Below are positions 26,480 through 64,000 of a DNA stretch of 64,000 bases, piece by piece; the first letter of the stretch is position 1; every line of letters begins with the position of its first letter. Source of the stretch: Thermofilaceae archaeon (GTDB lineage Archaea > Thermoproteota > Thermoprotei > Thermofilales > Thermofilaceae). The stretch spans positions 189,182-253,181 of the forward strand of contig JAWCCZ010000004.1 of assembly GCA_038861545.1 (NCBI GenBank), written 5' to 3'. Under the pieces are notes generated by a model. It ran no database searches. It was given only the letters and a program-made list of their open reading frames with translations, and was not told the DNA's origin. A program made the translations under genes and the position numbers.

Positions 26480-27505
26480 TTGGTATCAATGAGCAAACGG
26501 GAAAGGCCCCAGGTAGAGGATGAGGAGGGATTTGACAATGCGAGCGAAGGAGATACTAGCTTGGAAGAATTGGAGCTCGAAGATCTCGAAGGAGTGGGAA
26601 GAATTACTGCTCAGAAGTTAAAGCAGGCTGGTTTCTTTTCAATAAAAGACATAGCTTTCGCATCTGCCCACGACCTTGCCGAGATTTTAGGTTCGGAAGA
26701 ACGAGCGATGAGTGTTATTCGATCAGCTCAGAAACTGCTTGGCTACGGTAAAATCTTTGTTACAGCCAGAGAATTTTACGAAGAGCGAAAGAATATCGCC
26801 TATATTTCAACCGGAGTGAAGGCTCTTGATGACCTACTCGAAGGCGGTATTGAAACAAGGGCTATCACAGAGCTTATAGGGGAGTTTGGGGCTGGTAAGA
26901 CTCAGCTTTGTCATCAGCTTGCTGTTATGGTTCAGCTTCCCCGTGAGCGGGGTGGTTTATCAGGTAAAGCTCTCTACATTGACGCTGAAGGAACTTTTAG
27001 ACCTGAACGCGTAATCAGTATTGCAAGATACAGAGGCATAGACCCAGAAAAAACACTTGAAAATATCGTTTATGCTAGAGCCTATAACAGCGACCATCAG
27101 ATGCTCATAATCGACGAAGCAAAGAAAATAGTGGAGGAGGAAAGCATTAAAATAGTACTCATAGATAGTTTAATCACACATTTTAGGGCTGAGTATCCTG
27201 GGAGAGAGAACCTTGCGGCTAGGCAACAGAAACTGAACAAACATATAATGCAGCTGGCAAGGCTGGCAGCGATATATGATCTTGCAGTGGTGGTAACAAA
27301 TCAGGTGATGGCCGCACCAGATGTGTTTTTCGGCAACCCTCTTAAGCCGGCAGGAGGGAACATCGTAGCCCATGGCTGTACATATAGGTTATGGTTAAGG
27401 AAAGGGAGAGAAGGAAAGAGAATAGCTAGGATTATAGATTCGCCTAAACATGCCGAGAAAGAAGCAGTTTTCGCGATAGCTGAGGAGGGGGTTATAGATG
27501 CTTAA
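26480..27505 (+). CDS. radA: DNA repair and recombination protein RadA
   Basis: N-terminal Hh[40 protein letters not shown]. Confidence 0.98.
26985..27066 (+). repeat. 82-bp exact repeat, copy 1 (inside radA)
   Basis: Identical to the reverse complement of 63919-64000. Confidence 0.97.
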
Positions 27506-28821
27506 GCTGGCTTTATTGAAGTAGTCCCACCCTCTTGAGCGTTATTTGAAGTAGTGAAAACTTCTATGCGGTAAACCAGTGGTTGAAAACCATGGTAAAT
27601 TAACTCCTCTAGCAAGCCTTTACTGCTCAGCAGTTTATCGTTGACAAACACGATCTCCTTTTCAATATATGCCCTACCACCATCTTTCTTAATTACCCAC
27701 ATCACTTGGGCTTTTTTATCTAAGGCATACATCTTCATAAGGGAGCAAACTTTTTCACCGACTTTCTCGCTTTTACAAGCAAACAAATACTCACTAAAGG
27801 CAACTAAGCTACTAGCTCCTTCAGAGTAATATTCTGCAACCCTATCCTTCGGAAGCACAACAACTTTCCTCCCATCCTGCTCTATCACCTCCTTTAACCT
27901 TCGCAGCAGTATGTATTCGACAAAATCCTCGTAAGACTCTTCATTCCTGAGCGTAGATACTGGAACATAGAAGGTTTCATTAAGCATCTCCTTGTTTGTA
28001 TCGGAAATTATTACATGTGTCTTCTCTGAATCCCTGCTGACCCTTTGAAAACCTAAATCAAAACGATTTGCGCATCTTCTACACATTGTCCAGTCACCAG
28101 GTAAGTGGACCTTCTTTCCGCACCTGTTACACTTTTTCCAGACTCCGCCTATGAACCTCCACTCCACCGATACGCCTCCTTCCTTATTTACATTAACGAT
28201 AGCATAGTTTCCAATAATTTTTCCATCCCTATCTACTCTATCCAGTCGAGCTACATTAATGTAAGTTACGCCATTATACTTTACGTGAATCCCGCCAAGA
28301 GCATGGCTGTGGCCGAATATGTGCACAATAGGTTTATAATATGATAATAGATAATTGACCTCAGGTAGCCCCGCGTGGTGACTAATGAGAGAAGCCTCTA
28401 ATTTTCCTCCCCTGTCAAGAATACTGAATGGTGGATAATGTGTAACTAAAATTATAGGTTTAGAGAAAAGCCCTTTAAAAGGTTTTAGTGAAGCTCCATG
28501 TCCTATGAGCAACATACCGTTAAGTTCGAGTGGCCCTAGGGCTTCTAAATCCGCTATTAATGGTTCTTCGTTAACGATCCCGGAAGGGGCATTAGCATCC
28601 CAGTTCCCTCTAATATAAAGAACGGGTTTACCTAGCTTTGATAACTCTCCGATCACTTGGATAAATGCCTCCTCTTTCTGGGGATTCCCAAGATCCCCTG
28701 CTATTATTATTGCGTCTAGAGACCTCAAAATATCTTGCCCAATGCTAGCTGTAAGGGCTTTTACAGATTCCGTTCTTCCATGGATATCTGACACACATAG
28801 CATGTTAACTTCATTCCTCAT
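27502..28821 (-). CDS. metallophosphoesterase with internal Zn ribbon and C-terminal extension
   Basis: SDIHG, AGDL, GNWD, THYPP, GHSH; CNRC...CRRC. Confidence 0.85.
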
Positions 28822-60602: not shown

Positions 60603-61316
60603 TTACCCCCTCTTAACTCCTCGTAACGAGTTAACCCACTTCTTTGAGCTTTCCCGCATAACTTTAAGCAGAGATATATCGTCGATTAAGTAAACGCTTT
60701 CGCGGATAAGGGCGGCAAAGCCGTACCTACTTAGAGCCTCAAAAAGCCCAGTGTAACTGGAGCATAGCGCCTCGCTTCTCGCTATCTCGCTACATGGGAT
60801 GTCGAGAACCTCGCTGCTACTCTCAGCTACCATGCGTACAGCAGTCCAAGCATCTACAACCCCCTTTAATTTACCGGCCCTTACTACGAATACGCAGATA
60901 GACCCTCGTTCCATCATCCTCTTTAAAGCGCCTCTCAGCGTAGCATTAGGTGCTACGACAGCCGGCGCCATAGCTTTGCCCGTGACTTCAAAGGGCGAGA
61001 TGCTTTTAGACGCTATACGGGCTAGGGATCGCGGGGCTAGAACTAATCGGCTCCCCCCTGCAACAAACAAGTACTTAGCACCACTCGCAATATAATACTC
61101 TACTGCTCTACTTAAACCTACCCGCCCTTCCAGCTTAGCGAGTTCTCCCCCCGCGCTCCACCCACCTTCAGAGAAGCCGTTCATGGCTAACCGAACCAAA
61201 GAGTCTAAGGTCACCGGCTTCCCTTTAACTAACGCAATGAGCATCAAGCCGCGTGCAAACTCTGCAGTAATCGCGTCCGGTTCATCGCATTCAAGCGAGA
61301 TGACTGGTTCAGCCAA
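60603..61316 (-). CDS. divergent CBS-domain protein
   Basis: AM.PAVVAPNATLRGALKRM...GKLKGVV. Confidence 0.65.
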   Translation of the reverse strand: MAEPVISLECDEPDAITAEFARGLMLIALVKGKPVTLDSLVRLAMNGFSEGGWSAGGELAKLEGRVGLSRAVEYYIASGAKYLFVAGGSRLVLAPRSLARIASKSISPFEVTGKAMAPAVVAPNATLRGALKRMMERGSICVFVVRAGKLKGVVDAWTAVRMVAESSSEVLDIPCSEIARSEALCSSYTGLFEALSRYGFAALIRESVYLIDDISLLKVMRESSKKWVNSLRGVKRG

Positions 61317-63210
61317 TTTCCACCACCCTAGAGATGTGGAAACCCCCGCGTGGAAGCAAAGCCAATACTTCGCTAGGCTGAATTCTGGCTTTTAACCCTT
61401 TTGCCATCAACGCAGAAGAAAGCCTTTTAGCTACTTTCTCAGCAGTTTCTTCTCTCTTCAGCCTGCCTGGCTCCAAGATAACGGCCGCTTTACACTTGCT
61501 GAGGAGCGGCTGGAGTGGACCTGCGAGCAACTTAAACACTCCCCCCTCTACTTCAACCCCTATCGCGAGCTCTAGCTTTACGCTCTTAATATAATTCCTT
61601 TTCCCGTACACCATGAAAGCACCTTTTTTGATGTACTCTCCGGCTGGAGCTTTTTTTGAAACTTGATCTGAATTCACCCAGTAAACGTCAACGGAGGTTA
61701 AACCGGCTTCCCACGCCTTCGAGTAAATAGCGGCTAACTGGGCCGCCTCCCTGATAGTCGCTTCGCCAACCTGCTTACCCTCACTTTTCACTATAACCAC
61801 GGGTCCACCGTGAATCTCAGCATGAAAGAATAAGTCGCCTACCTGCATGTACTTCCTAACAATCGCTTCGTTCTGGCTAGCATCCCTACCGCCAATGACT
61901 AGGAAACCCTCGCTCGAGAAAAAGTGGTGGAAGCTCTCGAACCAGCTTCTCTCTTTCCTTAACTTAAGAGAAGGTAATTCCGGCGACTTCAGCCCCAGTC
62001 TAGCTGCAACTTCCTTAGCCTTCTCAGCTTTCCTCTCAAACTCCTTAGCCTCCTCGTATAGTAGCGAAGCGTTACGAGCTGCACTTAGGTTTGCATTAAG
62101 ATCCACTTCGACGCCGTTCACGAGCATTTTCACCAACATTCTAGGAGGATCTACAGCGATTATCTCAGGGTATTTTTCGCTCAGCTTACCTTTTAAAAGA
62201 TCCCATTGCACGCTTTCCCTGAGGATTTTAAACTCTTTTAATAGCATTTCAAACCTAGCTAGGTCGGACATTATAACCTCCGCTGCCCTTTTAAGCTGAA
62301 TTGACCTTTCAGCGTACTCGTGGGCGAACTGCTCGGCCTCCACAGCAGCTCCACTCGTCGTTGCTGGAACCTGGATGAGGAGTTTAGTTAGAAGCCGGTC
62401 TACAGCCTCAGCGAAAGTCGTGCTTGGCTCGAGTTTCAAGGTTACGTGCTTCAGCTTAATAGGGTAAGCTGCAGCTACCTCCCCCTCCTCCAACGCTACG
62501 CACGGCTCCAGCTCTCCTTTAAGCACCTTTAAGATCAACTTCTTCAGTTCAACGAGCGCTCGACTTAACGCGTTAAGTGGAACAGTGTTAGAGACAACAT
62601 TCGGATCAACTCCAGCGCGGTACGCGGCTTCGGCTAGGAGCTCGCCTGGAGCGTTCACCGTGCGGGAAAGAAGAGCCGCTACTGTTAATCTTGCATTAGG
62701 AGATGGCACATCCAGGTGAGTTAGGGAGAGGGGGTCAAGTCCCCTTGGAGGTGGCGGCTCATAAAGCTCTCCGATAGCTAGCCTCCTATCCCTCATCTCC
62801 CTAGCCCTTAACAAGGCTGTCACCCTTCCTCCACCGTTCAGCGCTATTAAGTTCCCCTCGCGAACCCACTCGGCAACTATCTCCACCCTTCCGCCACCTT
62901 TATCGAAGGTTAAGACTGCTACCCTGTCTAACCCGACTTGCCTTATACAAGTTAGTCGCGCCCCCCTTAACTCACGCAACACGGCAGCGAGCTGCTTAAC
63001 AGGTTCCCCGCGGGGAAGCTCGTACCGTGTTTCAAAAACTCCTATACAAGGGCTGAGCACTAGGTAACGGTCGCCTAAAGCCGGCTCCCTGAACCTGGCT
63101 ACTACGGCTTCGCCAAGCATCCAAGCCTTCTGCAGCCTTAATCCCTCAAGGCCGTTTAACCCCTCCCTAAGAAGCGCCGCGAAGTCGACTGCTGTAAGAG
63201 ACCGTTTCAA
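61309..63210 (-). CDS. NFACT/RqcH (aRqcH) ribosome quality-control protein
   Basis: LDRV, EGN, WFESFHHF, GGRDASQNE, FHAEIHGGP, GAFMVYGKRNY; start moved to TTG 63210. Confidence 0.92.
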   Translation of the reverse strand: MKRSLTAVDFAALLREGLNGLEGLRLQKAWMLGEAVVARFREPALGDRYLVLSPCIGVFETRYELPRGEPVKQLAAVLRELRGARLTCIRQVGLDRVAVLTFDKGGGRVEIVAEWVREGNLIALNGGGRVTALLRAREMRDRRLAIGELYEPPPPRGLDPLSLTHLDVPSPNARLTVAALLSRTVNAPGELLAEAAYRAGVDPNVVSNTVPLNALSRALVELKKLILKVLKGELEPCVALEEGEVAAAYPIKLKHVTLKLEPSTTFAEAVDRLLTKLLIQVPATTSGAAVEAEQFAHEYAERSIQLKRAAEVIMSDLARFEMLLKEFKILRESVQWDLLKGKLSEKYPEIIAVDPPRMLVKMLVNGVEVDLNANLSAARNASLLYEEAKEFERKAEKAKEVAARLGLKSPELPSLKLRKERSWFESFHHFFSSEGFLVIGGRDASQNEAIVRKYMQVGDLFFHAEIHGGPVVIVKSEGKQVGEATIREAAQLAAIYSKAWEAGLTSVDVYWVNSDQVSKKAPAGEYIKKGAFMVYGKRNYIKSVKLELAIGVEVEGGVFKLLAGPLQPLLSKCKAAVILEPGRLKREETAEKVAKRLSSALMAKGLKARIQPSEVLALLPRGGFHISRVVEIG

Positions 63211-63321
63211 ACCGAACCCCAAGACCTTTAGCTGGTTACCAATAAATTTGACGAGTTTAATGTCTTTTAGGCTGCGACTAATAGTGGTGTTAATATATAC
63301 CCCCTCTACAGCAACGCTGTT

Positions 63322-63546
63322 ATGAAGTGTCCCAAAGAATATACGCATTTAATTGCCGCTCTCCTGCTCGGCATGGCTTTCGGTGCCTCTCTGATTCCTC
63401 CTCTGGTCGGCTACCTTGTTGCCATGTTAGCCGGGTTAGCTCTGCACAAAGCTGGCCTGCTTAACGCTTTGAAGGAGGCGGTTGAATACGTGGGTTTGCT
63501 AGCCATATCCTGGACCATAGTTGCTACCCTCTTGCATTACCCGTAA
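63322..63546 (+). CDS. small membrane protein
   Basis: 74-aa hydrophobic ORF in the gap, downstream of TTAATATA. Confidence 0.55.
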   Translation: MKCPKEYTHLIAALLLGMAFGASLIPPLVGYLVAMLAGLALHKAGLLNALKEAVEYVGLLAISWTIVATLLHYP

Positions 63547-64000
63547 TCAAGTATCCCCTTATCTGTTATGACTAACCTACAAGTATCCGCGGATCTGGGG
63601 ATTTCAAGCGAAGCCTCTACCAAACCATTCCCTATGGGTTTTAACCTTACCCGAAAATCCACCCACATGGAAACATGGGGGTCTCCGATAACTTTATCGC
63701 CTCTTACAGCGCTTGTAACCACTGCTACACCACCCCAGAGAGACAATCTCTTTAAAAGCTCAGCCGCTTTCCCAAAAGCTCTTCTCGCCTCCCTAACACC
63801 CCTAGGCGATAAAAGCGCGTAAGCTAGGGAATCAACCACCACTAGGTTCACGTCAAGATCCCCTAAACTTATCACTGCTTCCGCGATACCGTCCAAATCG
63901 ATAGCTTCAATGTATTTAATATTTTCAAGTGTTTTTTCTGGGTCTATGCCTCTGTATCTTGCAATACTGATTACGCGTTCAGGTCTAAAAGTTCCTTCAG
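63537..64000 (-). CDS. RadA/RecA-family paralogue, 5' end outside the window
   Basis: Frame open to window edge: [29 protein letters not shown]...LVVVDSL...AVVTS...ITDKGILD. Confidence 0.85.
   Translation of the reverse strand, partial: EGTFRPERVISIARYRGIDPEKTLENIKYIEAIDLDGIAEAVISLGDLDVNLVVVDSLAYALLSPRGVREARRAFGKAAELLKRLSLWGGVAVVTSAVRGDKVIGDPHVSMWVDFRVRLKPIGNGLVEASLEIPRSADTCRLVITDKGILDYG
63919..64000 (-). repeat. 82-bp exact repeat, copy 2 (inside radA paralogue; truncated by window edge)
   Basis: Reverse complement matches 26985-27066 base for base. Confidence 0.97.

Follow-up and report, generated by a model that had tools for sequence, protein, structure and literature searches.

Gene conversion among the chaperonin (thermosome) subunit genes of crenarchaea was reportedly described by Archibald and Roger in 2002. 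In prokaryotes, concerted evolution that gene conversion has maintained among paralogues over long times has been documented for tuf, mtrA and other genes (PMC6053082, PMC4632066). A 2018 survey listed 26 such genes, seven of them archaeal and all of these from methanogens, with no recombinase and no gene from Thermoproteota (PMC6053082). The products of genes of the tuf/mtrA type tend to form homopolymers or to belong to the same complex. Here we describe a locus in Thermofilaceae in which the recombinase gene radA and two RadA-like paralogues carry one block of identical DNA, and we put at about 90% the probability that this identity was produced by recurrent short-tract gene conversion, that is, by concerted evolution. 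We found no description in the literature of radA-paralogue conversion or of Thermofilum RadA paralogues, and the case is apparently undescribed, though its mechanism is ordinary, gene conversion between paralogues being well known; prokaryotic cases that last for long are nevertheless rare.

The window, by which we mean the whole stretch of 64,000 nt that was analysed, comprises positions 189182–253181 of contig C4 (253,181 nt) of the genome assembly G000, and its base 64000 is the final base of that contig. The original prediction, made on the letters of the window, was that its last 82 bp are an exact, in-frame reverse complement of radA 26985–27066, and this was confirmed. Positions 63919–64000 (− strand) match radA at 100% over 82 nt, the repeat is in frame both in radA and in the paralogue at the window end, and it is the sole inverted repeat of at least 30 nt in the window. 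Outside the block, DNA identity between radA and this paralogue is only 37% (246 aligned nt), and an exact run of 82 nt is therefore not a chance match. Since C4 ends at base 64000, these 82 nt are the visible part of a longer repeat. The full block has 173–197 nt and lies in three genes, radA, paralogue 1 and paralogue 2. The tract is thus longer than the 82 nt in view, as had been suspected, and the window stops at a contig break that the repeat itself caused. The earlier picture of a repeat between two genes holds for radA and a paralogue as carriers of the copies and fails on their number, as there are three copies and the gene in the window is one of two tandem paralogues. Two direct repeats in the window, D1 and D2 (72–77% identity, 35 nt), look like chance. 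The features of the window are as follows.

26489..27505, + strand: radA, archaeal recombinase with an HhH domain, the FVTA polymerisation motif, an ATPase core and L1/L2 motifs
26870..27066, + strand: converted block in radA, 197 nt, twelve residues not spelled out here and then ...EKTLENI, identical to paralogue 1
26894..27066, + strand: sub-block common to radA, paralogue 1 and paralogue 2, 173 nt, GKTQ...ENI
61309..63348, − strand: NFACT-family gene (Pfam NFACT-R_1 and NFACT_N), downstream neighbour of paralogue 2, outside the repeat
63537..64000, − strand: 3' two-thirds of paralogue 2 (153 codons), an open-ended ORF truncated by the end of C4
63902..63918, − strand: post-block stretch of 17 nt, codons KYIEA, present in paralogue 2 and in another copy, followed by divergence
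63919..64000, − strand: portion of the block left on the end of C4, 82 nt, the reverse complement of 26985–27066

The radA product is a RadA by family model, with a whole-protein score of 472.9 bits against a cut-off of 259 (NCBIfam RadA equivalog, NF003301 / TIGR02236). It matches Pfam Rad51 and HHH_5, and its best solved relatives are 1PZN and 2BKE. When aligned to 1PZN, the block corresponds to PfRadA residues 135–200 and spans Walker A, the next helix, and a β-strand and a helix that together make up most of the FxxA acceptor site. In PfRadA, V168, I169 and W170 belong to the Phe pocket of this site, while K198 lies beside the Ala pocket (PMC5117717). The strand of the block carries V168, I169 and W170, and its helix reaches K198 (PfRadA numbering). 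Residues Y201 and V202 are just outside the block of G000, but they fall within the longer tracts of three other genomes (G003, G013 and G020). Convergent with radA is a metallophosphoesterase gene of 439 aa (window 27502–28821, − strand), the two 3' ends overlapping by 4 nt; the pairing is conserved, as G019 (L023) has this neighbour too.

We compared radA with the k=31 contigs of four runs, X1 and X2 from study P1, probably the one from which the assembly stems, and X4 and X6 from an independent 2024 study, P2; the comparison is of contigs, with no raw reads, and depth is a rough value per contig. A branch at 26870 is present in all four runs, its loose end being the sequence found at the end of another contig of the assembly, C3. 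Branches at 26894 and 27066 are present in three of the four (X1, X2 and X4). The one at 26894 leads in these runs to a 522-nt contig, whose loose end encodes IVELVGPQSS before GKTQ, a Walker A of the paralogue-2 type. The 173-nt unitig covering 26894–27066 has a depth of 31.5/36.6/19.7, compared with 13.3/14.1/5.7 for the single-copy flanks (~2.4–3.5x). At 27066 the paths lead to radA sequence and to the C4-end sequence, and the latter splits again after 17 nt: a 47-nt unitig made of 30 nt of block and these 17 nt occurs in X2 and X4, and a 190-nt contig in X1 stops at the same point. The second gene sharing the 17 nt (63902..63918) would be paralogue 1. The organism has three copies of the block, in radA, paralogue 1 and paralogue 2, and C3 and C4 both stop at the repeat, C3 in the copy of paralogue 1 and C4 in that of paralogue 2, because assembly failed to pass through a sequence present in three identical copies. 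The stretch common to paralogues 1 and 2 is ~190 nt, with 173 nt shared by all three genes and 197 nt by radA and paralogue 1; similarly, paralogues 1 and 2 of G019 have 193 nt in common, running past the radA boundary. In X6, where depth is ~7, a contig crosses the block without the branches at 26894 and 27066, which at such depth and in contigs only is not evidence of absence. No inversion isoform of the 37-kb segment between radA and the window end was seen in the contig data. A 21.7-kb contig of ~3x higher depth in X1 and X2 matches 32 nt of the window (27179–27210) and then diverges, with a loose end encoding ...VVVDSITG. This contig probably carries radA from a relative that is more abundant in the spring.

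Paralogue 2 is a RadA-like protein of ~215 aa without an HhH domain, a linker, an FxxA motif or L1/L2 motifs, and its orthologues are 212–215 aa long, starting MLSTG. As had been noticed from the window fragment, the gene diverges abruptly after ...ENI and has none of HFRAEY, TNQV and PAGGN, with SLAYALLSPRG and VVTSAV at those places. In a tree of the flanking protein sequence it groups with paralogue 2 of genus g9, which belongs to the same family. The end of C3 carries the N-part of a RadA-like gene that also lacks an HhH domain; this paralogue-1 N-part (L003:4625–5000) lies downstream of a gene for a surface protein of >1500 aa. The last 130 nt of C3 differ from radA 26867–26996 by one mismatch, at position 3, which leaves 127 identical nt (26870–26996). 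Other contig ends of the G000 assembly also overlap by exactly 127 nt, and the overlap of the C3 end with radA suggests a k-mer junction. Neither paralogue has a Pfam HHH_5 match, and both fall short of the RadA cut-off of 259, with 185 bits for paralogue 1 (of G017), 123–131 for paralogue 2 and 34.9 for the window fragment; the converted block supplies much of these scores. They are likewise below the RadB cut-offs, with 50–58 bits against 172.4 and 46–51 bits against 278 (TIGR02237 / NF006861). Complete loci are available in genus g9, where two overlapping RadA-like genes lie by the NFACT gene.

g9 gene 1, ~270 aa: N-terminus matches the C3-end gene; carries the RadA-like block
g9 gene 2, 212–235 aa, starts MLSTG: C-part 58–60% identical to the window-end gene; carries the RadA-like block

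The tandem architecture is also found on a JGI contig, and the NFACT gene is a neighbour in G001, a sister species of the same genus, as it is in g9. We infer that the window-end gene is the second of two tandem, slightly overlapping paralogues of ~270 and ~215 aa, and that the 522-nt contig holds the paralogue-1 C-part and the paralogue-2 N-part that are absent from the assembly. This k=31 contig was read at one end, of which 30 nt lie on radA. After subtraction of the assumed overlaps it measures 479 nt, and the same interval is 475–478 nt in G012, G017 and G019. Its size, the loose-end peptide and synteny point to the order C3, paralogue 1, paralogue 2, C4, in which C3 and C4 would be neighbours separated by block, ~480 nt and block, and the block repeat would join these two contigs of G000. 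The end of C3 also has a 12-nt overlap with the C4 end taken in reverse complement. Joining them there gives a single 275-aa 'chimeric' gene, which we rejected as the main reading because g9 has two tandem genes and the run contigs show a third copy and the 522-nt piece. The joined gene is probably not real; a fused single paralogue gene may exist in part of the population. A nearly identical, full-length paralogue 2 was sought in a protein collection, as was, with the g9 protein, the paralogue-1 C-part of this organism; both searches returned more distant relatives only, and a scan of metagenome contigs for the paralogue-2 C-part gave no matches. A 968-nt JGI contig belongs to a g9-like organism. 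Convergent with paralogue 2 is a hydrophobic ORF of 74 aa (window 63322–63546, + strand), its 3' end overlapping that of paralogue 2 by 10 nt; it has no Pfam match.

The same architecture is found in other genomes. In G001, all four arms, namely the N- and C-parts of radA and the N- and C-parts of the paralogue, end in the block, in an assembly made with overlaps of 141 nt. The exact repeat of G001 is 174 nt long, with its right boundary as in G000, and one contig (C23, 37,050 nt) is the exact interval between the inverted copies. The arms extend 82 nt into the block on C4 and 126 rather than 141 nt in G001; such odd lengths may reflect the third copy, but low coverage or overlap trimming could equally explain them. 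An inverted repeat with a spacing of ~37 kb had been proposed from the window, and the radA-paralogue inverted arrangement is conserved at 37–39 kb in two genera and at 186–268 kb in Thermofilum. Over ~20 genomes from at least six families, exact tracts range from 77 to 294 nt with variable ends, the longest runs being 292–294 nt. In the near-closed G020, an assembly of 4 contigs, two genes separated by 186 kb share an exact run of 293 nt. Among closed genomes, Thermofilum pendens Hrk5 (G014; RadA ABL78417.1, 'Rad51-like protein' ABL78145.1) has an exact run of 116 nt and T. adornatum (G011) one of 77 nt, and in both the copies are 97% identical in the core. The two paralogues of sister families, by contrast, are matched to one another over 270–294 nt and not to radA. 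For 46 genomes from other orders of the class, no two genes with an identical block peptide were found among the matches listed. In G043, G049, G044 and G041, also from other orders, a short paralogue lies ~1.3–2.2 kb from radA on the same contig. Its block is just 54–61% identical to that of radA; adjacency alone does not bring conversion.

Between the two sister species, G000 and G001, the radA block is 82.2% identical (31 differing sites out of 174), with 28 codons showing synonymous changes only and one amino-acid change, while the copies within G000, and those within G001, show no differences. As these internally identical blocks differ between the species, at least one event must have taken place in each lineage after the split. 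In the ~20 genomes, within-genome copies are 87–100% identical over the core and 30–50% over the next 100 codons. For 32 of 67 sequences the nearest neighbour of the core is in the same genome, compared with 2 of 67 for the flank. The flank protein tree groups by gene type and the core DNA tree by genome. The types in the flank tree are radA, paralogue 1, paralogue 2, a single paralogue (in Thermofilum/Infirmifilum and genus g4) and a fourth paralogue. The latter, of ~330 aa, is never converted, with 64–70% DNA identity in the block and ~50% in the flank. Converted genes (from T. pendens, T. adornatum, G020 and G013) and unconverted Infirmifilum orthologues form one clade (SH-aLRT 99), and conversion is therefore episodic; the block of the Infirmifilum genes (G016, G018 and G006) has 52–62% DNA identity to their own radA. 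In the close relatives G009 and G017 different copies have been homogenised, and the block of G009 looks like a mosaic of the three G017 variants. Converted cores of Thermofilaceae nest with radA of the same genome, a tree position which suggests that, in this family, the donor was mainly radA. The locus thus shows greater similarity within than between genomes, synonymous identity with abrupt boundaries, and recurrence in several lineages, which are the marks of concerted evolution. Conversion events are here read from such patterns rather than observed.

Three other explanations of the identity can be weighed against this evidence. One event in this lineage, either a single recent conversion or a chimeric duplication, would be enough for G000 on its own, as 100% identity there shows only that the last event was recent. 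The original prediction had kept a recent chimera as an alternative, and it named homogenisation within the genomes of relatives as the sign of concerted evolution. This is what was found: each of the two sister species is identical inside and 31/174 sites away from the other, the ~20 genomes of at least six families have variable tract ends and have decayed to different extents (87–100%), and G009 and G017 differ in which copies were homogenised. We therefore regard a single event as very improbable. An assembly artefact, also raised at the outset, is less probable still. In such a case a contig end would have been wrongly extended into radA and the paralogue would really be diverged there; the repeat does sit exactly at a contig end, and the overlap of C3 with radA, 127 nt, is the length of the other contig-end overlaps in the assembly. 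However, contigs of X1, X2 and X4, from the two studies, join both the C3-end and the C4-end sequences directly to the block, and so bear out the junction at 63918/63919, while X6 has the C3-end junction. The same four-arm junction was assembled from a different species at a different k (141), and exact runs of this kind are also present in closed isolate genomes. Least likely of all, to the point of being nearly negligible, is selection on the nucleotide sequence itself, through an embedded RNA, a binding site or codon constraint, without recombination. No part of the protein is more conserved than the block, and even the never-converted fourth paralogue has higher DNA identity here than in its flank. 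But 28 of 58 codons differ synonymously between the sister species while the paralogues are identical within each genome, unconverted orthologues have only 52–62% identity in the block, and the tract ends differ by lineage. With junctions present in independent contigs, and with block trees ordered by genome and flank trees by gene, the claim of ongoing gene conversion stood.

Conversion may not be peculiar to radA in this organism. Several tandem paralogue pairs of G000 share exact tracts of 66–132 nt, which argues that conversion is generally active in G000, and such tracts suggest that short-tract conversion is common in the genome. Outside the window on C4, gene-sized repeats ~1 kb apart share tracts at C4:109440–109556, 110435–110551 and 112379–112479. 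On C1, 76 nt are shared between positions 427090 and 428078 and 72 nt by another pair 976 nt apart, and further tandem pairs lie 1063 and 819 nt apart on C3 and 1245 nt apart on C6. Some short tracts were missed by a megablast self-comparison and recovered by a 40-mer scan, which covers the same strand only. Several contig ends are also similar to other contigs. C9:1–127 equals C3:166098–166224, this break lying at a repeat between paralogous genes; the end of C5 is ~76% identical to C3:164774–166106; and the starts of C3 and C5 have 352 nt in common at 82%. These similarities are possibly further breaks related to conversion or to strains. A dispersed element of ~97–109 nt occurs on both strands at 97–99% identity (C3:11984–12081, C5:16628–16737, C5:19336–19444 and C5:107793–107889).

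A separate question is whether the conversion serves a purpose. The original prediction proposed that it lets the paralogue co-assemble with or cap RadA filaments; in a fuller form, selection would maintain conversion since the paralogues need a P-loop and an FxxA acceptor face identical to those of RadA in order to dock on or cap filaments. The position of the block fits this idea, as PfRadA 135–200 takes in V168, I169 and W170 of the Phe pocket and, next to the Ala pocket, K198. Paralogue 2 itself lacks a linker and an FxxA motif, the pattern persists over a whole order, and long-lasting concerted evolution was found mostly in subunits of one complex or homopolymers (PMC6053082). A predicted complex of RadA and paralogue 2 of G019 lends weak support, with an ipSAE of 0.57 (0.00 for the highest of three controls), agreement between runs in at least 71% of contacts and a partner pLDDT of at least 80. 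Of 80 solved complexes 58 attained the mark used for such predictions, as did 2 of 110 mismatched pairs, but only 7 of the 80, along with the two mismatches, were at 0.60 or less; the score of 0.57 may also stem from solved RadA filaments already known to the predictor. Set against this, the Infirmifilum orthologues belong to the same clade and carry a diverged block, so the gene can persist without the identity. Tracts end at different points, with lengths between 77 and 294 nt, many other conversion tracts in G000 link unrelated tandem paralogues, and in sister families the paralogues match each other and not radA. The proposed purpose thus gained something from the complex prediction and lost ground with the unconverted orthologues, and we hold it to be unlikely on balance. 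Equally doubtful is the stronger statement that conversion is used and not just tolerated, copying of the radA module keeping the docking face of the accessory paralogues matched to the evolving recombinase. If it were true, the paralogues could always accept the polymerisation motif of RadA and cap or nucleate the filament, and the interface would co-evolve by copying rather than by compensatory mutation, the copying being done by the recombinase itself with its own gene as the template.

In the mechanism that we propose for concerted evolution at this locus, the identity very probably arises from recurrent, non-reciprocal homologous recombination with tracts of ~80–300 nt. The donor would mainly be radA in Thermofilaceae, while in sister families conversion would take place between the two paralogues. 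The most conserved segment of the RecA fold would retain enough identity to seed recombination, and every conversion would renew this identity, making the process self-perpetuating. Selection would remove tracts running into L1/L2 or the C-terminal part, since these would abolish what the paralogues themselves do. It would likewise remove crossovers, which would lead to a 37-kb inversion and to radA chimeras; given the conserved inverted arrangement, a crossover would invert DNA and not delete it. Our reading is that the RadA-identical module, with its P-loop and FxxA acceptor site, is tolerated in the paralogues rather than required.

These results bear on annotation and on experiment. Short-read assemblies of Thermofilaceae break at radA because of the block, and many proteins at contig ends are therefore 'partial RadA'. 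One protein cluster at 90% identity mixes a 253-aa paralogue with full RadA and many 'partial' RadA and HhH fragments from the contig ends of Thermofilum sp. MAGs. It follows that MAG assemblies of Thermofilum are often interrupted at radA by the block, with contamination of clusters and annotation as a result. The block also inflates the scores of the paralogues against RadA models and, left unmasked, will mislead trees of the RadA family. The same orthologue with a converted block in Thermofilum and an unconverted one in Infirmifilum is a natural experiment on the need for a RadA-like ATP/FxxA face.

How does the locus compare with known systems? Like archaeal RadB, crenarchaeal aRadC, and the eukaryotic Rad55-Rad57 and RAD51 paralogues, which are short proteins of the RecA fold that assist the recombinase, paralogues 1 and 2 have an ATPase core without the N-terminal HhH domain, have no or degenerate L1/L2 motifs, and are encoded as a pair. 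By analogy, a role as mediators or at filament ends is plausible for them. They differ from RadB in lying outside the RadB equivalog (50–58 bits, cut-off 172), and we know of no RadB, aRadC, Rad55-Rad57 or RAD51-paralogue family that is kept identical to its recombinase by conversion. The thermosome genes are likewise a reported case of concerted evolution of paralogues in Thermoproteota, their products being subunits of one oligomer, but there most of the gene is reportedly affected, whereas here it is the module from the P-loop to the FxxA site only. As with tuf and mtrA, paralogues within a genome are closer to each other than orthologues are, the identity extends to synonymous sites, and the pattern recurs in many lineages. 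Unlike the cases in the survey, conversion at radA is limited to a 0.1–0.3 kb module of genes that otherwise differ in function and have diverged strongly, and it connects a tandem pair to a dispersed copy in inverted orientation. Conversion between old, functionally distinct paralogues, in multiple segments and giving mosaic genes that mislead phylogeny, is also described for the bacterial release factors RF1/RF2 (PMC4530459), for different genes and in a different domain of life. The few prokaryotic genes listed as showing long-lasting concerted evolution are thus joined, from Thermoproteota, by a recombinase gene together with its accessory paralogues.
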